Below, one piece after another: positions 2,404 to 57,929 of a DNA stretch of 57,932 bases (position 1 is its first letter; each line of letters opens with the position of its first letter). Below the pieces are notes generated by a model. It was not told the origin of the DNA. It did no database searches and saw only the letters and a list, made by a program, of their open reading frames with translations. Origin of the DNA: a virus (Duplodnaviria; Caudoviricetes); IMG/VR virus record IMGVR_UViG_3300027597_000005, positions 1-57,932 of that record; one strand, 5' to 3'. Position numbers and translations under genes: made by a program.

Positions 2404-2704
2404 TAAGAAGGGCTGCTGTGGTGCATGCCCTTTTGCTTTTACGGATGAATCGGAATACGTACAGGGTCTTGGTTGTCTTCCAGAACCATATGACATTAAG
2501 AAGATGAAGGAAGAAAGTGGGCATAATTGGGCATGTCATGAAGATGAAACTAAGATATGCACCGGATATGTACTTCACGCTAAAAAATATTGGCCACACC
2601 ATGATGTAAAAAGTGGTGGTCTTATATCTTATACCAATTGGCATCAATTTGGCCCAGAAGAAGCCATGAGACTAGCTGGTTTACAAAACAATACACAAGA
2701 ATAA
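2390..2704 (+). CDS. Hypothetical Cys-rich protein
   Basis: CGACPF, GCLP, WACH, ICTG motifs; start overlaps the uvsY end. Confidence 0.6.
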   Translation: MGHTNKKGCCGACPFAFTDESEYVQGLGCLPEPYDIKKMKEESGHNWACHEDETKICTGYVLHAKKYWPHHDVKSGGLISYTNWHQFGPEEAMRLAGLQNNTQE

Positions 2705-2753
2705 TTGTATTCAAATATATTTTATTGTATAATTTAATTTTTAGGAGAACAAC

Positions 2754-3131
2754 ATGTTCAAATGGTCATTTGATGTTCTTAATTGCAGCCCTAAAAGGGT
2801 ATATGAAGAATACAGTGCATATAAAGTTTTCAATTTTAAACGTTGCTATGAAACAATCGACAGATATGCTACAAAAGACATGTATGTTGAAGTTGGTATA
2901 CTCGAAGATTGGCATTCTACCAGTGATATATTGGTTGAAAATGGCGTGTTAAATGAAAATGTAGATTTTCAACAATGGTCTACACGTGGGACGCCAGCAA
3001 TGAAAATTAATGGTTCTGTTGTACCATGTTTTATATATTCTAACGGTACTGCGTATAATAGAAATTATTCATATTGGAAAGCTGCCGCTAAAGTTAGATT
3101 GGAAATGTTAGACCGAAAGGTGTTTGAATGA
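2754..3131 (+). CDS. Hypothetical protein
   Basis: AGGAG RBS; ATGA overlap with the next gene. Confidence 0.7.
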   Translation: MFKWSFDVLNCSPKRVYEEYSAYKVFNFKRCYETIDRYATKDMYVEVGILEDWHSTSDILVENGVLNENVDFQQWSTRGTPAMKINGSVVPCFIYSNGTAYNRNYSYWKAAAKVRLEMLDRKVFE

Positions 3132-3535
3132 AGGTTATTAAGAAGTACACACAAGAAAATATTGAAGACTTGTTTTTACGAGCATGTAAGAGCAAATATA
3201 GCATGCATAAAGTTGAAATGGTCTATCGTCGTTTTTACTCAAGGCAACCAATTCGTTATAAGATGTTGGCAAATATACTGTCACGATTGATAGACAACCG
3301 TTTGACCATCACGATTGATCGTCTTGAACTTATAGATGACATTCGACCGCATAAAATCAGCTTGAAGCAAGATAACCGTGAAGTAAGTGATGAAAGCTAT
3401 TATGAGCAAGTATGTTTATTTTTCGTTAATAAGATAACATTGGCTGAAATACATCAAGTGAAGGATTATAAAATACCCGCATATTGGAGAAATTATGAAA
3501 AATACGAAGCTTTGTTATCCATTAAAAGTAATTAA
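3128..3535 (+). CDS. Hypothetical protein
   Basis: Translationally coupled ORF in a plus-strand operon. Confidence 0.65.
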   Translation: MKVIKKYTQENIEDLFLRACKSKYSMHKVEMVYRRFYSRQPIRYKMLANILSRLIDNRLTITIDRLELIDDIRPHKISLKQDNREVSDESYYEQVCLFFVNKITLAEIHQVKDYKIPAYWRNYEKYEALLSIKSN

Positions 3536-31691: not shown

Positions 31692-32942
31692 TTATTCAAA
31701 CTCATCATTTAACCATGAAATAAACAAATCTCTCATACGTTTACTAGGGATATAAACTGTAATTGGTTCACCATTTCTAATACGTGATCTAAAAATAAAT
31801 TGTATCAATTCGGATAATGCATACATTTTCTCATTTATTTGCACATTTTTATAGCACAAGGCTTTCTCAATCATTGGGTTGTGAAATAAGTTCAACAAAT
31901 AAGCAATTGCCCATGTATCACTATAGTCATTAGTTGCTTTGGTGTTATAGGATAACCATGATGCACTATACCTTCCCCCTGATATAACACGCATCGCCTG
32001 TTTAAAAGTTGTCCATAATCTTTCGTTTTTATTGGCCTTAGTTATATTATTAAAAAAGTTTAATAATCTTTTTCGTAGCTCATTATTAGAATGTTTTTTA
32101 GTGACTAAATCTGCGGCACTAAGGGCGGTAACTTTATCACCAACCTCATTCATTTTACGATCATCAACGATTGTTATTTTATCTTTTAATTGTGATGGTA
32201 AAAGTCCAAACTTTTCAACCGTGTAATCAATGCCATTTGATTTGAGAAAAGCACATAATTGACTTCCTTCAAACATATAAGTTGATATGTATATTTCTTT
32301 GAAAGATTTTATAATATCAACAGGAAACTCCCATAAAACTATTTTTTCATCAATAATTAATAATTGTCCTAAAGCACATAAGTTTGAAATTGTATCGAAT
32401 CTTGTATTTTCAGTATACGCAATCTTTTCATTGTTGAATCTAAGGGTAATACCATCAGCATCAACAGACAGCACATTCGACTTTATTAGTTGTTTGCACT
32501 CGTTAATATCAAGTATATCCGTAGCAGGCTCATATATCGAAACAACTTCATCAAGAAATAACGTATATTCTTTTTCTTGAATAACATTTGCTATAGAAGG
32601 TGTGAAGTTTGAAAAAAGACTATGTGTGGAAACAATATTGTACCCATTTTCAATTAACGTCATTGCATCTGATAATTTAGTCTCTCCTTTACTATTCGTA
32701 GGGTGTCTGAAACGTTTATTTTTTAATGGATTGGTTTCATCATAATAATACTCATCGTCAGAAACCATTAATGGACGTTTATAGACATCGTTTTCATCAT
32801 AAGATGTGCCAGCAATTCGATGACATTCTGACAATAACGGAGTAACATAGATTATGTTATTTGATGACTCAGCCATCATTTGAATCATCTTGTTTGTTTT
32901 ACCAGAACCACATAATGCACTAAACACTGTCACTTTTGTCAT
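31692..32942 (-). CDS. SF2 helicase-like protein, candidate origin-binding/replication initiator
   Basis: ALCGSGKT, IYVTPLLSE, LFLDEV, STYMF, ELIQFIFRSRIR motifs. Confidence 0.7.
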   Translation of the reverse strand: MTKVTVFSALCGSGKTNKMIQMMAESSNNIIYVTPLLSECHRIAGTSYDENDVYKRPLMVSDDEYYYDETNPLKNKRFRHPTNSKGETKLSDAMTLIENGYNIVSTHSLFSNFTPSIANVIQEKEYTLFLDEVVSIYEPATDILDINECKQLIKSNVLSVDADGITLRFNNEKIAYTENTRFDTISNLCALGQLLIIDEKIVLWEFPVDIIKSFKEIYISTYMFEGSQLCAFLKSNGIDYTVEKFGLLPSQLKDKITIVDDRKMNEVGDKVTALSAADLVTKKHSNNELRKRLLNFFNNITKANKNERLWTTFKQAMRVISGGRYSASWLSYNTKATNDYSDTWAIAYLLNLFHNPMIEKALCYKNVQINEKMYALSELIQFIFRSRIRNGEPITVYIPSKRMRDLFISWLNDEFE

Positions 32943-32966
32943 AATTAATCCTTTAGAAAGGTGATA

Positions 32967-32995
32967 ATTCTACCACATTTTTTACCAAATTTCAA
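32967..32995 (-). promoter_or_regulatory. sigma70-type promoter for the helicase-like gene
   Basis: Minus strand TTGAAA-17 bp-TAGAAT. Confidence 0.65.
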
Positions 32996-33182
32996 CAAAA
33001 AATACCCCCTAGATTTGCGCAACTACTAACACTTCTTTTACTATTTTTATTTTATATTTCTTATTAAAGAAAGATGGTGTAAACACATGTTTTTAAAGAA
33101 GAAAAATTCAGGTCTAAGCATAGGGTCTGCTTAAATCCAAAAATGTAGTAAAAAATGAAGAAAAATTATAGTGTCAAAGACA

Positions 33183-33481
33183 CATACTTGAGCGTAGCGA
33201 AAGTATCAGTTATAACGAACATAGTGAGTGAGGAAAAATAATTTAAAAATGTAAAATACCAGTATTAAAATTTTAATCATGGTATAAAAATCTCTACATC
33301 ATATTTTCCTCATTCGCTACGCTCATTACAAATTTTATATTTGGTTCTATTCCTCATTCCATTCGTCATAGAACGTTCACTTCGTTCATATTTTATATTG
33401 GTCAATTCAAATATCATATTTCCTCATTCGCTACGCTCACTATAAAATATAAAACTGATACTTTCGCTACGCTCAAGTATG
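33183..33481. repeat. Perfect 29-bp inverted repeat enclosing iteron-like repeats (candidate replication origin)
   Basis: CATACTTGAGCGTAGCGAAAGTATCAGTT at 33183-33211 and its reverse complement at 33453-33481; TTCGCTACGCTCA at 33313, 33427, 33463 and inverted at 33189. Confidence 0.9.
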
Positions 33482-33702
33482 CCTAACGACCATTTTTTAA
33501 TCAAACAATCTTTTTCTTTTCATTTAAAAGAAAAGAGTCTATCAAACCAATTAAACACATTCATAGAACGCTCTATAAAGCGTTTTAAGACGCTTAAACA
33601 AAAATTAAGTACCTTCGTATTAAAATGCCATCAATACCTCCTTAAACGAGCTTATAGAAGGTTTTAGGGCTATTTGTTAAATGGTGACAACTAAACTTTT
33701 AC

Positions 33703-33731
33703 TTGACAAATCAAAATTCTGTATATAAAAT
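33703..33731 (+). promoter_or_regulatory. sigma70-type promoter
   Basis: TTGACA-17 bp-TAAAAT. Confidence 0.75.
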
Positions 33732-33921
33732 ATGCAACGTCAAAAAAGATAGTTGTTAAACTGGGTTTTTGAACACAAATTTTTACATGTTATGGGAGTA
33801 AAGAGTTCAAAATTTTGATATAATTGTGTGGTTATGAGACGCACTTCTGATGGGGACATTGTTGTATCTGACTGATCTATATTTTTAATCCGTCCCTGTC
33901 CATTAGAGAGGTAAAATTTAA

Positions 33922-34413
33922 ATGTCTAATATAGTAAAATCATTGTTGGTTGCCATTGTATTCATGGCTCCAATCGCCGCCGAGGCAGGTAACACCAAGA
34001 AAACCGATCATTCGCATGAAAGCGTGGTGAAGACTGAAAAGAAGAAGAAGGGAAAGAAGAACGCCAAAAGTAAGGACACGATTTTGGTAAAGTCCACACA
34101 CTCAAGAATTGAAATTGGTAAAGCATCTTGGTATGGGAAGAAGTTTATAGGTAGGAAAACTGCGAGTGGAGAGCGTCTAAACGGAATTACAATGACTGCT
34201 GCTCATAAGAAACTACCATTGGGTACGATTGTAAAAGTAATAAACACGGAAAACAACCAAAGTGTTGTTGTTAAGATCAATGACCGTGGCCCTTATGTTG
34301 GTAAACGAATACTTGATTTATCACCGGCTGCTGCTAAACGAATCGGAATGATTGATGCAGGGGTTGCAAATGTTAGTATGGTTGTAATATCAGAGCCTAA
34401 AAAGATGTATTAA
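33922..34413 (+). CDS. rlpA: RlpA-like lytic transglycosylase (DPBB domain) with signal peptide
   Basis: GKASWYG, TASGE, TAAHKKLPLGT.VKV, V.INDRGPY...RILDLS; N-terminal hydrophobic segment ending AEA. Confidence 0.9.
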   Translation: MSNIVKSLLVAIVFMAPIAAEAGNTKKTDHSHESVVKTEKKKKGKKNAKSKDTILVKSTHSRIEIGKASWYGKKFIGRKTASGERLNGITMTAAHKKLPLGTIVKVINTENNQSVVVKINDRGPYVGKRILDLSPAAAKRIGMIDAGVANVSMVVISEPKKMY

Positions 34414-34436
34414 AAAAGCCCTTAAAGGGCTTTTTT
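34412..34436 (+). terminator. Rho-independent terminator
   Basis: AAAAAAGCCCTT-A-AAGGGCTTTTTT. Confidence 0.8.
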
Positions 34437-34489
34437 CATTTATTGCGTACAAAATATGTTTAAATAACATTCATGTTTGGAGGTATATT

Positions 34490-36122: not shown

Positions 36123-36749
36123 ATGAAAAATATGATGACATTGATGGAATTTTTTGATTCCGCTGATTTGCCAAATAAAGATCAAAATTTGGGAATAAAG
36201 CGTGTCAATATGCCACAAATAGAAACAAATCAATTTTTGGCTGATGTAGAAAAACATCCAGACATAAATTATACTAAAGATGTAGTTGATACCGATCAGC
36301 TATTACCATCACAATCTCAATTCAATGATGGGAAGGTGAAAGCAATTGTTATGGCACTACGTTCGGGTGCAGAACAGAAACCAATTATAGTTACCGAAGA
36401 CAATTATATTGTTGATGGTCATCATCGTTGGGCAGCACATGACAATATAGGTGCAAAAATACCTGTACTCAAAGTTGGAACCGACATTAATTCTCTTTTG
36501 GAGTTTTTGAAAGATAAACCATATGTTGTTAGAAAAACAATCAATGAATCGGTTAACATTGATAATATGAAACGTCAACTGATAGACATATTGCGTTTAC
36601 GTGTTCAAAAATCTTGCCCAATTTCCTCGTTAGGCTACTCGATGATGTTGCAACAAGAAACACAAAAAGTTATAGATATGCCGGATGATCAAGTTACCAA
36701 GGAATATAATCAAATTTTTGTTAATAACGACGTTTCCCCGGTGAGCTAA
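36123..36749 (+). CDS. ParB/sulfiredoxin-like domain protein
   Basis: L.PSQ, PIIVTEDNYIVDGHHRWAA. Confidence 0.8.
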   Translation: MKNMMTLMEFFDSADLPNKDQNLGIKRVNMPQIETNQFLADVEKHPDINYTKDVVDTDQLLPSQSQFNDGKVKAIVMALRSGAEQKPIIVTEDNYIVDGHHRWAAHDNIGAKIPVLKVGTDINSLLEFLKDKPYVVRKTINESVNIDNMKRQLIDILRLRVQKSCPISSLGYSMMLQQETQKVIDMPDDQVTKEYNQIFVNNDVSPVS

Positions 36750-39137: not shown

Positions 39138-40187
39138 ATGACTTTTTTACAAACAAATTATATAGCTTCTCACGAAACTTCCAACAACCCAATTGTAAAC
39201 TCCTATCAAGCAATTTTATCTAAACGATTGTCGGAGATGTTTTCACGAACTAATTATTATAATTCTGGTTTTGGATATTTTTATATAACAAAGCAGAACT
39301 TATTTCGTTTGAAGGCATTGTTGGAAGAAAAACAATGTTTAATTTATCACTTTTCTGGTTCTTCAAAAGAGTTTATCTATATTACCAATGATAATGAAGA
39401 AATCGTAAAAGTTAACTTTATATCAGAAGTAAATGATTGTGTTGAAGAATCTTACAAGATGTCGTATAACTCTATTATGAGAACTTGTAGTAAAACATTA
39501 GAGTTTTTGGAAATATTGAAAGATGTTTCTTTTGTTCCTCCTAATAAGATGAAAGTATACAATTATTATTTTCAAGAAGGAAAAATTGTATATAATGAAA
39601 TGTTGATGGATGTTACCCCGTCGTTGAACCAATTGGCGTATCCGTATATCAAAAACATGCATCAATATTTTGAAGATTATTTTAACAATGAACGCAGTGT
39701 CTGCATCTTTAAAGGACAACCCGGAACAGGTAAGACCACATTAATTCGTTCTTTGATGGCCAAATATACACCTCAAGATGTTCCCGTATTTTATACTAAC
39801 TCGGATCGTGCTATTGAGTCTGATCAATTGTTCAGTGAGTTCTTGACTTCTTCTGCAAAGTCTATTGTTTTTGAGGATATTGATATCCATTTGACTGCAC
39901 GTAATGATGGTAATTTGACAATGTATCGTTTGCTTGCAGCATCTGATGGTTTCATTAAGTCTCCAATCAATAGTAAGAAAATCCTTATTTCTACAAACTT
40001 ACCTAACATTCGTGAAATGGATAATGCATTGACTCGCCCCGGTCGTTGTCAAGGTATCATTGATTTCCGTGCATTGGATTATACCGAATCCTGTGCATTC
40101 ATGGAGTCTATTAAACAAGATTATTCGTGGTTGGATAGTAAGAAGAAATATACCTTGGCAGAATTGTATAATCCGGAATTGAAATAA
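39138..40187 (+). CDS. AAA+ ATPase
   Basis: GQPGTGKTT, IVFEDID, STN, DNALTRPGRC. Confidence 0.88.
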   Translation: MTFLQTNYIASHETSNNPIVNSYQAILSKRLSEMFSRTNYYNSGFGYFYITKQNLFRLKALLEEKQCLIYHFSGSSKEFIYITNDNEEIVKVNFISEVNDCVEESYKMSYNSIMRTCSKTLEFLEILKDVSFVPPNKMKVYNYYFQEGKIVYNEMLMDVTPSLNQLAYPYIKNMHQYFEDYFNNERSVCIFKGQPGTGKTTLIRSLMAKYTPQDVPVFYTNSDRAIESDQLFSEFLTSSAKSIVFEDIDIHLTARNDGNLTMYRLLAASDGFIKSPINSKKILISTNLPNIREMDNALTRPGRCQGIIDFRALDYTESCAFMESIKQDYSWLDSKKKYTLAELYNPELK

Positions 40188-40990: not shown

Positions 40991-41310
40991 AAGTAATGAA
41001 ACACCCATTTGCTTTGACAAATGATACATTAAAAGACCATTATATGATAATTGATGGCGACTACAAAGGTAGTGTTTATGAACTGAAAAATGTTCGCTTT
41101 GGTGGGGATGCTGAGATTATGTTTGATTTGGACTTAGTTGCATTGCAATTTAAGGAAAGACCAGTGACCGATATATTCCTTATAAATTACCATTTTGGTA
41201 TTATACAACAAAAGGTTAGTGATTTGGTTGTTGAAGCATTGAAATCGTATATTGATGCCAATACAGATAAAGAAGCTGCCAACATAGCGGACAAACCTGT
41301 ACGTGAGTGA
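40987..41310 (+). CDS. Hypothetical protein
   Basis: ATGA-coupled ORF. Confidence 0.65.
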   Translation: MKVMKHPFALTNDTLKDHYMIIDGDYKGSVYELKNVRFGGDAEIMFDLDLVALQFKERPVTDIFLINYHFGIIQQKVSDLVVEALKSYIDANTDKEAANIADKPVRE

Positions 41311-41617
41311 AAAGAAAAAACTCATACGCCAAAACTTTCGTGAGTCTGTTTTTGGACGTGACGGATATAAATGTGTCTTTTGTGATATTACTGAAACCCT
41401 TGATGCACATCATATAACCGATAGAAAAGAAATGCCAAACGGAGGCTATGTTGCCTCTAATGGCATTTCTTTATGTCATGAACATCATATGTTAGTTGAA
41501 GATTGGCATGTTTATGGTGAAGTTATAGAAGAACGTTATCATCCAAATAATCTTTATCAGATGGTTGGAAGTTCATACGAAAAGGCATATTTGGATTCTT
41601 TGAAATTGGGGAATTAA
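41303..41617 (+). CDS. HNH endonuclease
   Basis: VFGRDGYKCVFC, LDAHHI, NGISLCHEHH. Confidence 0.85.
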   Translation: MSEKKKLIRQNFRESVFGRDGYKCVFCDITETLDAHHITDRKEMPNGGYVASNGISLCHEHHMLVEDWHVYGEVIEERYHPNNLYQMVGSSYEKAYLDSLKLGN

Positions 41618-48617: not shown

Positions 48618-49343
48618 ATGAAATACCCTTATCTAATATTTTACAAACAAAAAGTTGACAATTCATTAAGTTATGATGAATATGTCGGTTTATATGAAAA
48701 GGCATTGCCATCGGAAAATGAATACATGGAATACCATTCTTTGATTGGTAAGCTACCATTATTAACATATGATGAAATGATAAAACGTGAGCGTGATGGT
48801 TTTAAATCTAAGTACGAAAGTTATAGAAAGATAACATCACAGATAAATTCTAGACCAATTGATTCAGATGAAACTTATAATGAGTTTATTGATGAGTGTA
48901 TTGAAAATGGTTATGAATTATTTGATGATGATAAAAATACATTTTCTACTGTTGATATAACATGGAAGAAAAATTACGTAAAGGATATTTTGGTAACACT
49001 TTCAAACACGGTATCCAGAAATGGTGTTATCTATAGTAATGATGTTTTGGAATCTATGTCTAAACAAATAAATGAAAACAAAATATTATGTTTAAGCGGC
49101 ATACGTGATGATTTTAAAATAGATTTGGAAAATGTTGTTGGTATATGTCAGAATGCTAAAGTAACGGAGAAAGGATTAACAACAGATTTAAAAGTATTTA
49201 ATGGTTTCACATTGGACAGAGAGCATTTTACTGTAGGGTTTTGCTCATCTGGAAATGTTGATGATAAAGGTAATGTTAACGACATTGAAATAAAATATTC
49301 ATATATTTTTCCAAAAGAAGATTCACAATGGAAAAAGAGTTAA
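48618..49343 (+). CDS. Two-domain protein with a degenerate prohead-protease-like C-domain
   Basis: NTVSRNGVIYSNDVLE aligns with gp21 NIVNRNNRMYPKDILD. Confidence 0.65.
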   Translation: MKYPYLIFYKQKVDNSLSYDEYVGLYEKALPSENEYMEYHSLIGKLPLLTYDEMIKRERDGFKSKYESYRKITSQINSRPIDSDETYNEFIDECIENGYELFDDDKNTFSTVDITWKKNYVKDILVTLSNTVSRNGVIYSNDVLESMSKQINENKILCLSGIRDDFKIDLENVVGICQNAKVTEKGLTTDLKVFNGFTLDREHFTVGFCSSGNVDDKGNVNDIEIKYSYIFPKEDSQWKKS

Positions 49344-50065
49344 CAAAAACTGAATTATTCATAAAGAAAGCCAAAGCTATACATGGCGACAAGTATAATT
49401 ATGATAAAACTGTATATGTAAAAAGTTTACAAAAAGTAATCATTACATGTCCTGTTCATGGCGATTTCGAACAATTTCCAAATAATCATATTCTCAAAAA
49501 ATGTGGGTGTTATGCATGTAGTGGTAGAAATATAAAACCAGTTAATAAAAGGGCGTTAACAACATCATCTTTTATTGAGAAAAGTAAAAAAGTACACGGT
49601 GACAAGTATAATTACGATAAAACAGATTATTCACATTCACATATAAAAGTTATATTAACTTGTCCTAAACATGGTGATTTTTTAGTTTCTCCAAATAATC
49701 ATTTACGAAATGAAAAAGAGGGTGGTTGTCCAAAATGTCATTATGGCGTACCATCAAATAATGAGGTTATTGAAAACTTTAAAAAAGTACATGGTAATAA
49801 GTATAATTATGATAAAACAGTTTATGAAAATAGTTGTTCAAAGGTAATAATTACATGTTCTATTCATGGTGATTTTGAACAGTTGGCACGAAGTCATTTA
49901 AAAGGTCATGGTTGTAAAAAGTGTAGTTATATGTATAGCAAAAAATATTGTTTGTGCCCTATTCATGGACAATTTCCGAAAACAAAATATAATATAAAGC
50001 ATGGTTGCCCTAGTTGTAATATTTTGAATAATTGTGATTGTGAAGAATGTAAAAAGGGAGTTTAA
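49328..50065 (+). CDS. Zinc-binding repeat protein of homing-endonuclease type (DUF723-like repeats)
   Basis: Three copies of HG.KYNYDKT.Y....KVI.TC..HGDF......H....GC..C plus a partial fourth. Confidence 0.75.
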   Translation: MEKELTKTELFIKKAKAIHGDKYNYDKTVYVKSLQKVIITCPVHGDFEQFPNNHILKKCGCYACSGRNIKPVNKRALTTSSFIEKSKKVHGDKYNYDKTDYSHSHIKVILTCPKHGDFLVSPNNHLRNEKEGGCPKCHYGVPSNNEVIENFKKVHGNKYNYDKTVYENSCSKVIITCSIHGDFEQLARSHLKGHGCKKCSYMYSKKYCLCPIHGQFPKTKYNIKHGCPSCNILNNCDCEECKKGV

Positions 50066-55886: not shown

Positions 55887-56251
55887 AGCGTTTTATGATT
55901 ATTGCAATGGCTTTTGGTCTTTCAGCATGTGCCCCTGATACCCCTATCAACCAGCGCCAAGCCTCTGAGTCACAATTTCAGAATATTAAGGGGTTGACTG
56001 ATTGTATGCTTTATGACATTCAGGACTCAAATGTTTTGATCGTGCGTTGCCCAAATTCTACAACTACTACATCTTATGATGAAAGTTGCGGGAAGAATTG
56101 TCGTCGTCAAATCACTAATGTTGTCACCGATGGCGCACCATCTAGTGAACCACAAGTATGTGATACGACGAAAATTTACACACAGGCGCAAGCTGACGCA
56201 ATGTGTCTTGATAAGGTTTCCAAAAGTATGGGTTTTAAACCAACCGAGTAA
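55883..56251 (+). CDS. Lipoprotein
   Basis: MKRFMIIAMAFGLSAC lipobox; Cys-rich. Confidence 0.8.
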   Translation: MKRFMIIAMAFGLSACAPDTPINQRQASESQFQNIKGLTDCMLYDIQDSNVLIVRCPNSTTTTSYDESCGKNCRRQITNVVTDGAPSSEPQVCDTTKIYTQAQADAMCLDKVSKSMGFKPTE

Positions 56252-56255
56252 TATC

Positions 56256-57929
56256 ATGGATAATGTGACGAAATACTTTAGAACACATCACCTACCTTGG
56301 TCAGAAGCCGTGGCAGATGATGACGTTGTTGCTAAATCACCATTTACCGAAGTGGATGAAGTCGTCGTCACTATTAAGATGGATGGTGAATGTTTTATTT
56401 CAAAAACTCCTATTTTAATGTATGACGGCACAAAAAAGTTTATATCTTCAATAAAAATTGGTGATATTGTTGCTGGTGAATGTAACGGGGAAATTATACC
56501 ATCATTTGTTACTAAAACTTTTTTTAATGGAAATACTAATGATTGGTGCAGAGTGTGTTTTGAAGACTTATCTGGTAAAAAATACAAAACATTAATTTGC
56601 ACATCAACCCATAATTTTTTTGTTGATGGTGTATATAAACCAATACATGAGGTTAGTATCGGTAATGTTTTAAAACATTTGAAAAATAATAGAGTATGTC
56701 ATGACATACAAAAACAAATAATATTGGGTAAGTTATTAGGCGATGGTTCTTTTGGAAAATATGGAACTATGCAGTACACCCATAAGTTAGAACATATTGA
56801 GTATTCTAATTACATAAACACTATTTTGGGTGATGTTTACTCTGGGTCATGTATTGATAAAAATTATAATAGTTATAGTAAAAAAGAAAAATATAAGTCA
56901 TGGACTAAAAGTTGCAACACTATTTCTTTGCTTAAACAGTTAATGATAAAAAATAATAAAAAGATATTTCCTAAAGAGTTAATTGAAGAAATATCACCAT
57001 TATCATTGGCTATACTTTATATGGATGATGGAAATATTAGTTATAACAAGCTACCAATTATGCATATATCAACATGTGGTTTTGATTTGGAGTCATGTGA
57101 GAACATCCGTAAAGTTTTTGACATATATGGTATAAAAACAACGTTAACCAATAGTGATGGATATTTTTATATCCATATTTCGGCACATTCAGTTAATGAT
57201 TTTTGTGAGTTGATATGCAAATATATACCCCCTGTTATGCAGTATAAATTACCGGATTTATTTAAAAATAAATTCGAATTATTAGATGTAAATTATAAAT
57301 CTTTTAATGAACAAGAATTAAAAGATGTTAGAGTTAAAAGTATTGATTTTATAAGTGGTTCAAGATATACTGGAAAATATGACATCGAGACAACCACTCA
57401 TAATTATTTTGCCAATGGTGTTTTGGTTCATAATTGTACTTCTTTATACCCTTCTGGTCGTTGTCATGCGAGAAGTATTGATAGTGGTAATCACCCTTCC
57501 CGTGATTTTGTGAAAGCCTATTGGCGTGACCGTGCCCACTTACTACCTCATGGGTGGCGTGTGTGTGGTGAAAACCTATACGCCAAACATAGTATTCATT
57601 ATGAAGACTTGAAGGCATATTTGTATGTTTTTTCAATATGGAATGAACATAATATGTGTCTTTCGTGGGATGAAACGGTTGAGTGGGTAGAAATGCTAGA
57701 ATTGGTTCCGGTTGAAGTCATATATCGTGGATTATATGATGAAACTGAAATTAAGAAGGCTTTCCTACCACATAAGGAAAGACATGAAGGGTATGTGGTG
57801 CGTAATGCCAATTCATTTCATTACAGTGATGCTTCGAAAAACTTGGCCAAGTATGTTCGTAAGAACCATGTTCAGACGAATGAACATTGGATGTTCCAAG
57901 AAATAGTTCCAAATAAAATAATAAATTAA
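56256..57929 (+). CDS. ATP-dependent RNA ligase (Rnl2-like family) containing an intein
   Basis: KY.RT.HLPWS, IKMDGE motif I, HARS, CGENLYAKHSI.Y, FSIW, EGYVVR, AKYVR..HVQT..HW; likely start ATG 56256. Confidence 0.88.
   Translation: MDNVTKYFRTHHLPWSEAVADDDVVAKSPFTEVDEVVVTIKMDGECFISKTPILMYDGTKKFISSIKIGDIVAGECNGEIIPSFVTKTFFNGNTNDWCRVCFEDLSGKKYKTLICTSTHNFFVDGVYKPIHEVSIGNVLKHLKNNRVCHDIQKQIILGKLLGDGSFGKYGTMQYTHKLEHIEYSNYINTILGDVYSGSCIDKNYNSYSKKEKYKSWTKSCNTISLLKQLMIKNNKKIFPKELIEEISPLSLAILYMDDGNISYNKLPIMHISTCGFDLESCENIRKVFDIYGIKTTLTNSDGYFYIHISAHSVNDFCELICKYIPPVMQYKLPDLFKNKFELLDVNYKSFNEQELKDVRVKSIDFISGSRYTGKYDIETTTHNYFANGVLVHNCTSLYPSGRCHARSIDSGNHPSRDFVKAYWRDRAHLLPHGWRVCGENLYAKHSIHYEDLKAYLYVFSIWNEHNMCLSWDETVEWVEMLELVPVEVIYRGLYDETEIKKAFLPHKERHEGYVVRNANSFHYSDASKNLAKYVRKNHVQTNEHWMFQEIVPNKIIN
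56391..57434 (+). mobile_element. Intein (348 aa) with a LAGLIDADG homing endonuclease
   Basis: Starts CFISKTPILMYDG; block B CTSTHNF; LGKLLGDGS and AILYMDDGN; ends YDIETTTHNYFANGVLVHN followed by +1 Cys. Confidence 0.93.

Follow-up and report, generated by a model that had tools for sequence, protein, structure and literature searches.

Origins built from iterons are served by a dedicated initiator, as with plasmid Rep proteins, lambda O and, in T4, oriE with RepEA and RepEB; in herpes simplex virus 1, UL9, a superfamily 2 (SF2) helicase with a separate C-terminal sequence-specific DNA-binding domain, binds the boxes of the origin oriS as well as the hairpin form oriS*. Here we analyse a repeat array that invites both comparisons. 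It occupies positions 33183–33481 of a viral contig of 57,932 bases (IMG/VR record IMGVR_UViG_3300027597_000005; hereafter the window, meaning this whole stretch), upstream of a gene for a YonV-type SF2 helicase, and it is built around a word of 13 nucleotides (nt), TTCGCTACGCTCA. Other comparisons concern hairpins. As described in the passages of the review PMC13037366 drawn on here, unusually stable DNA mini-hairpins (Hirao, Kimoto) have two published forms, GCGNAGC and GCGNNAGC, the first folding with two G–C pairs and a sheared G–A pair that closes a one-base loop, and such words stand at the primer-start hairpins of phages G4, St-1 and alpha3 and near ssiA of RSF1010. The REP, BIME and REPIN repeats of bacteria, as far as the survey PMC3733652 covers them in the parts used, are short imperfect palindromes in non-coding DNA, found singly, in inverted pairs or in clusters. 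The Bpu elements of Cycas mitochondria have a 36-nt consensus, AAGGTTATCCCTTTCCTGAGCGTAGCGAAGGGAAGG, that contains TGAGCGTAGCGAA, the complement of the window word (Chaw et al. 2008 as quoted in PMC8297867). We read the array in the window as a local cluster of a widespread hairpin-tip word that acts, if at all, through single-strand structure, and we give this reading a probability of about one half; that its double-stranded sequence is read by a dedicated initiator is unlikely.

The 13-mer occurs four times without mismatch, at 33189–33201 on the minus strand and at 33313–33325, 33427–33439 and 33463–33475 on the plus strand, and no further copy is present in the 57,932-base record even when one mismatch is allowed. 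With a chance expectation of ~0.002 exact copies (2 × 57,932/4^13) against the four seen, the repeat set is far above chance. Copies 1 and 4 lie in the arms of an inverted repeat (33183–33211 and 33453–33481) that is perfect over 29 bp and belongs to a longer match of 46 nt at 85% (33183–33228 and 33436–33481); both sit in a hairpin with the stem ATACTT/AAGTAT (33184–33206 and 33458–33480). Copies 2 and 3, on the plus strand and without flanking stem, end a longer unit, ATCATATTT(T)CCTCATTCGCTACGCTCA, that is, ATCATATTT(T)CCTCA followed by the 13-mer, which is found twice, as ATCATATTTTCCTCA plus the 13-mer at 33298–33325 and as ATCATATTTCCTCA plus the 13-mer at 33413–33439. Decayed copies accompany the intact ones: TTCACTTCGTTCA at 33376–33388 on the plus strand, with three mismatches to the 13-mer, an inverted piece at 33216–33228, and TTCCTCATTCCATTCGTCA at 33350–33368, also on the plus strand. 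The spacings (36, 51, 63 and 114 nt) are irregular, an AT-rich palindrome, 88% complementary, lies between the arms at 33256–33285, and small hairpins stand at ~33115 and ~33578. A preliminary description, made from the sequence alone, had reported the inverted repeat, the four 13-mers, the longer unit, the degenerate copies and the small hairpins, all of which we recover at the same places; the decayed copy at 33350–33368, read from the sequence, is an addition.

The setting also agrees with that description, which had placed the repeats in a non-coding stretch of ~1 kb between divergent sigma-70 promoters. The largest stretch of the window without an open reading frame (ORF) of at least 80 amino acids (aa) runs from 32943 to 33921 (979 bp) and lies where gene orientation switches from minus to plus. 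Two outward sites resemble sigma-70 promoters by their consensus match: TTGAAA-17-TG-TAGAAT on the minus strand at 32967–32995 (10/12 plus a TG extension), which would serve the helicase gene and lies between the repeats and that gene, and TTGACA-17-TAAAAT on the plus strand at 33703–33731 (11/12), which would serve the rightward operon. The repeats occupy the centre of the ~700 bp between them. Two other resemblances of the word were considered and dropped: that of copy 3 and its flank (CGCTCACTATA) to T7-class promoters was judged to be chance, as the bases after the 13-mer vary among the copies, and a hammerhead or k-turn was set aside because the word does not appear to fit the core consensus.

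Several features of the word point to a hairpin tip. Its complement can be written T-GA-GCGTAGC-GA-A, and the mini-hairpin sequence GCGTAGC is present in all four window copies, once on the plus strand and three times on the minus strand. Around such a fold, the flanking GA/GA could add tandem sheared G–A pairs, closed by an outermost T–A pair. Copies elsewhere usually stand at the tip of a hairpin with a variable stem: bases directly adjoining the word are complementary in 307 of 340 distinct flank pairs, and in 120 the complementarity runs to three pairs or more, with stems such as GCTAG/CTAGC, GATTAGC/GCTAATC, GATGGGT/ACCCATC and ATCC/GGAT, next to ATACTT/AAGTAT in the window. A further case comes from an unrelated phage contig of 64 kb (L319; L numbers denote loci of this analysis), where a hairpin-rich spacer of 550 bp (2700–3200) holds repeated units with constant TGAG...GAAC flanks, some with CGATAGCG and some with GGCCTCTGGCC as their central mini-hairpin; no YonV gene is detectable in the 6-kb locus. 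Such a swap between kept flanks supports a structural reading. In an Acinetobacter sp. scaffold (L079), two copies with the stems GTT/AAC and GCGG/CCGC are nested in an outer repeat, AAAACTGCC/GGCAGTTTT, as a branched hairpin.

The likeness to described mini-hairpins extends to both of their forms, GCGTAGC lying within the window word and GCGATAGC within a variant found beside the nearest homologue of the helicase (L239, below). The sites of G4, St-1, alpha3 and RSF1010 differ in being single sites in single-stranded replicons, and neither the extended word with its GA/GA flanks nor its repetition across domains appears in the passages of PMC13037366 that were available.

The 13-mer is not private to this phage and is not a replicon-specific iteron. 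We scanned for pairs of exact 13-mers 10–40 nt apart. In IMG/VR, six other viral contigs carry such a pair; they belong to three unrelated sequence families that otherwise have nothing in common with the window, and the word written backwards gave no viral match. In L008 and L011 the pair lies in the spacer upstream of terS-terL-portal, in L009, L012 and L013 (phages of ~100 kb) in a non-coding region of 1.2 kb, and L010 forms the third family. Among prokaryote contigs, sampled at one genome per species, the pair is found in at least 122 stretches. Within the matches listed, 80 titled entries represent ~50 assemblies, from Bacteroidota, Gemmatimonadota, Chloroflexota, Cyanobacteria, Firmicutes, several proteobacterial classes, Acidobacteriota, Planctomycetota, Actinobacteriota, a bacterium of the candidate phyla radiation and an archaeon, Halorubrum. 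An exact word common to cycad mitochondria and a haloarchaeon therefore cannot be the private origin code of one phage. In five whole genomes, a biased sample picked because they already matched, the wider family TTCGCTNCGCTCA has 32, 8, 558, 6 and 96 copies, against 0, 0, 0, 0 and 1 for the backward control. A pair of the GCGAAGC variant gave 25 viral matches, including giant-virus contigs and arrays of the pentanucleotide (TTCGC)n.

Some of these loci show features of their own. The pair region of L009 (4800–5250), shared with L012 and L013, carries triloop hairpins, for example CGTTTGCGAAGCAAACG and ACGCTAAGCGT, together with G-run or GGAAGG..CCTTCC hairpins, and in L008, which is unrelated, the pair has a GGAAGG hairpin like these behind it. 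In phage contigs of 40–159 kb (L219, L225, L227, L234, L235 and L237) the GCGAAGC form grades into (TTCGC)n and TTCCATTCGG units, and the decayed window copy at 33350–33368 resembles these graded arrays. The 558 copies counted above belong to a Binatia chromosome of 4.2 Mb (G024, the genome of L052), where they lie on both strands, many of them in tandem arrays with a period of 33–34 nt. An apparent replichore bias in this genome was dropped: the run of plus-strand copies reflected listing order, and the loci from the prokaryote scan are of mixed strands.

Set against dispersed repeat families, the window array matches in its unit and differs in its spread. According to the portions of the Bpu literature seen, the elements of Cycas and Ginkgo mitochondria hold the identical 13-mer between complementary CCCTT(T)CC and GGGAAGG, the same hairpin-tip architecture, but they amount to ~500 dispersed organelle copies with AAGG terminal direct repeats; the phage has one cluster of four intact copies, with other stems and no evident terminal direct repeats. 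Like REP, BIME and REPIN sequences, the window copies are short imperfect palindromes in non-coding DNA, and two Competibacteraceae loci (L014 and L030) hold the 13-mer in a GTAG-tagged hairpin. REP families are, in the parts of PMC3733652 consulted, lineage-specific and tied to RAYT transposases, whereas the window word spans phyla and no RAYT-like gene is seen beside it: none of the 61 window ORFs scanned against PHROGs is a RAYT (Y1) transposase, in a window that covers ~33% of the genome. The strings AGCGAA and TTCGCT are absent from the text of that survey, its figures aside. What the window array shares with REP and Bpu elements is thus a short hairpin unit with a conserved apical core; genome-wide dispersal is seen in bacterial genomes and not in the 57.9-kb record (~33% of the genome), which has a single cluster.

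As a cluster of hairpin tips, the array would work as follows. On the TGAGCGTAGCGAA strand the word would fold as the GCGTAGC mini-hairpin, lengthened in two copies by the ATACTT/AAGTAT stem of 5–6 bp. Its growth may be explained by a unit of ~69 nt that was duplicated locally, both directly and inverted, which would have given rise to the 29-bp perfect inverted repeat; at least three copies would have decayed since. The array fills the spacer between the outward promoters, upstream of a horizontally mobile YonV-type helicase gene. Any action would most probably run through the hairpin that forms on single-stranded DNA during replication, recombination or transcription, which could block the machinery, serve as its landing pad or invite recombination.

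The helicase gene, P0001 (31692–32942, minus strand), encodes a compact DinG/XPD-like SF2 helicase of 416 aa and belongs to the YonV family (PF27199, named YonV_C in the Atlas; phrog_2467, E=7.6e-73 over residues 1–415). PF27199 is recorded for P0001 and for all 120 listed homologues, and the GSGKT (Walker A) and LDEV (DExx) motifs are invariant in 39 homologues. The protein is 32% identical to YonV of SPbeta and 43% identical to gp131 of Aeromonas phage 4L372XY; its nearest relative, in a search of 5.8 billion proteins, is that of L239, at 57%. Homologues occur in 56 GenBank phage records from very different hosts, and homologues ~46% identical to P0001 are common in Acinetobacter. The AlphaFold model (predicted local distance difference test, pLDDT, 91.2) has XPD and DinG as its top Foldseek matches, with Z ~16 and 335–350 residues aligned by VIA-align over model residues 1–414, in keeping with the SF2-helicase-like protein of the preliminary description. 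Judged from this model, compared as a whole, P0001 appears to consist of helicase core throughout, since the alignments span residues 1–414 of 416 and leave no space in which a further, DNA-binding domain could lie. Searches of PDB sequences, NCBIfam and PADLOC gave no useful match. Members of 793 aa in one Atlas YonV cluster carry LAGLIDADG intein domains, and inteins are typical of replication-type genes; in Vibrio phage VH-8 a homing endonuclease gene follows the YonV homologue. In a Psychrobacter phage the homologue adjoins genes annotated as replication initiation protein and as primase/helicase. The YonV protein itself is named, in the excerpts of literature found, only beside a neighbouring toxin–antitoxin system.

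In other viruses the word occurs independently of this gene. A YonV homologue is encoded in none of 20 other motif-bearing viral records (0/4 and 0/16; the window as control gave E=7.7e-189), and, conversely, the strict family TTCGCTNCGCTCA is found in 0/78 viral and 1/80 metagenome YonV loci. The regions upstream of three GenBank homologues contain no similar repeats, and the genes flanking the array in the window show no synteny in any of 158 YonV-homologue loci.

Several observations nevertheless weigh against the hairpin-tip reading. First, only two of the four intact window copies have the flanking stem of 5–6 bp. Second, we infer the G–A clamp and the extrusion of hairpins in vivo from sequence. 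When the array was folded as single-stranded DNA (ViennaRNA, DNA parameters), z was ~−10 on both strands, a value driven by the long inverted repeat, and sheared G–A pairs lie outside this nearest-neighbour model. Third, we are aware of no enzyme or mechanism by which a word like this could be carried from one domain of life to another. Fourth, the word is confined to a single cluster in the window and likewise in each of four other phage records, of which three are at least 96% complete and in all of which the word family amounts to one two-copy cluster; this pattern resembles a cis-acting site more than a dispersing selfish element. Fifth, gene orientation switches and cumulative GC skew reaches its lowest value (32–34 kb) where the array lies, as would be expected of an origin.

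Sixth, the nearest homologue has a variant of the word in an upstream layout like that of the window. In the 560-bp spacer upstream of the L239 gene, TGAGCGATAGCGAA is found twice without mismatch, at −410 and −337; it belongs to the GCGNNAGC form, contains GCGATAGC and is one base longer than the window word. A decayed inverted copy follows at ~−228 in a TTCCT/AGGAA hairpin. Read in gene orientation, the window has the same order, with GAGCG-type copies at ~−370 to −530 and then the inverted stemmed copy at ~−250. Because the strict word misses this one-base-longer variant, we used a relaxed pattern, GAGCG-N1-2-AGCGA, with controls, on 161 YonV loci reduced to 96 non-redundant ones. Of 13 matches, 8 lie within 1 kb upstream of the gene on the coding strand, a compartment that makes up 80,693 of 2 × 558,888 strand positions (7%), and one more is at −1011. 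Controls with the reversed word and with three scrambles had 4, 2, 0 and 1 matches, and at most one in the upstream compartment. The eight upstream matches fall in 6 of the 96 loci (L239, L263 and the related set L311, L314, L315 and L318), the other 90 having none within 1 kb upstream. Since these six loci reduce to about three independent lineages, the enrichment, though real, is modest (p ~0.02 by our own estimate). It suggests that the repeats and the gene may be inherited together or may work together. The bare core GCG-N1-2-AGC was rejected as a marker, being only ~1.7-fold enriched upstream of YonV (0.41 versus ~0.24 per kb), which is too weak.

Other YonV homologues have upstream repeats of their own. 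In L140 and L143, which are Acinetobacter-type and prophage-like, a spacer of 1.3 kb upstream of the gene contains, at 2230–2900, three AGACAAGGTTTTGTCT palindromes (AGACAA..TTGTCT), of a kind that would be typical of operator sites, and in Aeromonas phage 4L372XY the place of the array is taken by a small gene and ACACAA-type words. Upstream control regions thus seem to travel with the YonV gene, their repeats differing between lineages.

These last points bear on the preliminary proposal, which had seen in the locus an iteron-type origin paired with a helicase-like initiator. Of that module the repeats, the helicase fold and the position at the strand switch and skew minimum stand, replicon specificity does not, and a DNA-binding domain and regular spacing find no support. 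The array does resemble an iteron origin in having several copies of one word in an AT-rich spacer beside a candidate replication protein, and in that the copies are identical within the locus and different in the nearest relative; it differs in that the word is not replicon-specific, the spacing is irregular, both orientations occur and the neighbour is a bare helicase core. The parallel with UL9 and oriS is similarly partial: an SF2 helicase stands beside inverted repeats able to form a hairpin, but P0001, as modelled, lacks the extra domain and shows no sequence relation to any solved chain.

The proposal survives in modified form, as a structure-coded origin or helicase entry site for the DinG/XPD-like protein. 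Hairpins would extrude from the AT-rich spacer, and the YonV-type helicase would recognise a hairpin or fork rather than a duplex sequence and open the region for bidirectional replication, an origin added to the recombination-driven replication of T4-like phages. We regard this as doubtful, though several lines of evidence speak for it. It would account for the position of the array, which coincides with the largest non-coding gap, the strand switch, the skew minimum and the lowest-GC 2-kb bin nearby (0.305 at 32–34 kb); for the matching distances in L239, the upstream, coding-strand bias of the relaxed motif and the single cluster per phage record; and for the upstream repeats of other homologues. 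The inteins, the replication genes beside the Psychrobacter phage homologue and the mini-hairpin words at single-strand initiation sites of G4-type phages and RSF1010 (in the passages of PMC13037366 seen) point the same way. On the other side, GC skew here tracks gene direction, so that the minimum found by the proposed skew analysis is confounded, and no replication genes adjoin the locus in the window. The search for repeats beside homologues was positive in L239 and five further loci of the 96 and negative in the remaining 90, the protein is missing from the other motif-bearing viral records, neighbouring genes are not syntenic, and the modelled P0001 offers no second domain for DNA recognition. 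A ParB-like gene, mentioned in the preliminary description alongside a packaging or partition site, does have a match at 36123–36749, but a weak one.

An alternative that involves no replication is that the hairpins serve transcription, as terminators, insulators or stabilisers of transcript ends between divergent operons, as proposed for REP sequences, or, together with a nearby palindrome, as operator sites for a regulator of the helicase cassette. The palindrome in question, ATAGAGCGTTCTAT, lies inside a block of ~80 nt (33500–33578, minus strand) that is 74% identical to DNA of Aeromonas phage 4L372XY (L005, 3252–3331; E=4e-8 against a small locus set). The block is non-coding and upstream of a YonV-type gene in both phages; in 4L372XY it precedes a promoter and a gene of 61 aa, and in the window a half-site of the palindrome recurs at 33366–33378. 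It may be an operator. Copies elsewhere are also placed suggestively: in L263, a short way upstream of the YonV promoter region, an 8-bp hairpin with the variant word at its tip leads into a T-run, in L010 the copies come after a stop codon and before a terminator, and in L008 they come after a terminator. A crude ORF survey put 90 of 123 arrays outside long ORFs and found the left gene co-directional in 11 of 13 low-GC loci, but the survey is rough and its counts are small. In the window itself the copies stand upstream of both promoters and not at gene ends, and no T-run follows those with stems. RNA-library contigs are likewise absent over the array, where only short mismatched pieces of unrelated contigs fall, a weak negative drawn from assembled contigs only. 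We consider a role in transcription unlikely.

The same RNA evidence bears on the suggestion, raised in the preliminary description, that the region yields a stable, structured non-coding RNA. Contigs of three RNA libraries cover 33764–34437, in the neighbouring gene, as fits the rightward promoter, and not the array; Rfam gave no match for the window, also at a permissive E-value, or for 20 of the loci; and the copies occur in both orientations. The strong predicted folding (z ~−10) would favour such an RNA, but DNA parameters were used to compute it, and the long inverted repeat is what drives it. We hold this explanation to be very unlikely.

Less probable still, to the point of being remote, is an invertible DNA switch, in which a recombinase would flip the 241-bp segment between the 29-bp inverted repeats and with it the weak promoter-like sites inside (33242–33271 on the plus strand and 33417–33390 on the minus strand, each 9/12). 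The repeats are perfect and the inner sites do lie on both strands. Yet no invertase or integrase is present among the 61 window ORFs scanned against PHROGs, and duplication of the repeat unit in inverted orientation accounts for the arms. No strand-changing joint was seen in the contigs of one DNA run (X4). These contigs are interrupted between 33260 and 33271, within the inner palindrome at 33256–33285 rather than in the repeat arms; nested repeats may have broken the assembly there, or the point may truly vary.

The phage that carries the array is a distant T4-like one, as the preliminary description had supposed, because its record, an IMG/VR viral contig estimated to be 33% complete, encodes UvsY, gp23-, gp20-, gp21- and gp22-type head proteins, both topoisomerase II subunits and DenV. 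It also encodes a UvsW-type helicase, TerL, tail tube proteins and several HNH and LAGLIDADG endonucleases. Its baseplate wedge protein is at most 31% identical to GenBank relatives, which are pelagiphages and cyanophages, and when the viral collection was scanned with this protein and with the helicase, each taken singly, no close relatives of the phage emerged. The sequencing runs that contain the region are riverine metagenomes. An RNA-ligase gene at 56076–57929 includes a LAGLIDADG homing-endonuclease segment, and free-standing HNH endonuclease genes lie in the same arm at 41303–41617 and 49328–50065, the family of the latter being the one that also follows the YonV homologue in Vibrio phage VH-8. 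An AAA ATPase of phrog_14322 is encoded at 39138–40187, 6 kb from the helicase gene, and again in L239 (7628–8257), 3 kb downstream of the nearest YonV homologue; the two phages therefore share more than one accessory gene.

Beyond this phage, the word may be one thing wherever it occurs. In this broader and more tentative reading, which we think possible without favouring it, TGAGCG-N(1-2)-AGCGAA would be a G–A-clamped mini-hairpin and a single, previously unrecognised DNA module that crosses domains. By spread or by repeated origin, the same tip of 13–14 nt would have come to be present in phages, giant-virus contigs, at least 15 bacterial phyla, a haloarchaeon and, as Bpu, gymnosperm mitochondria, its single-strand fold being read by, or interfering with, universal replication and repair machinery. 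In YonV phages, the DinG/XPD-like helicase would use or resolve it, and the locus analysed here would then be a structure-coded origin or a site of helicase entry.

Mini-hairpin DNA, REP-type repeats and Bpu elements are each already known. String searches of the literature returned only primers and the Cycas paper, and a wider search added the mini-hairpin review and further gymnosperm Bpu papers; in what these searches found, as far as the texts were accessible, the extended word is not described as common to phages, bacterial phyla, an archaeon and plant mitochondria, and the literature on cyanobacterial repeats may cover the copies in Calothrix. One practical consequence is that arrays of the 13-mer should not be annotated as iterons on sight. 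The word links mini-hairpin chemistry, bacterial REP-like repeats and plant-mitochondrial Bpu elements, subjects usually kept apart, and points to a testable idea, that one very stable single-strand fold has been reused or re-invented across life. For the YonV helicases, a family widespread in phages, the hinted pairing of repeats and gene offers a concrete handle on what they may do.

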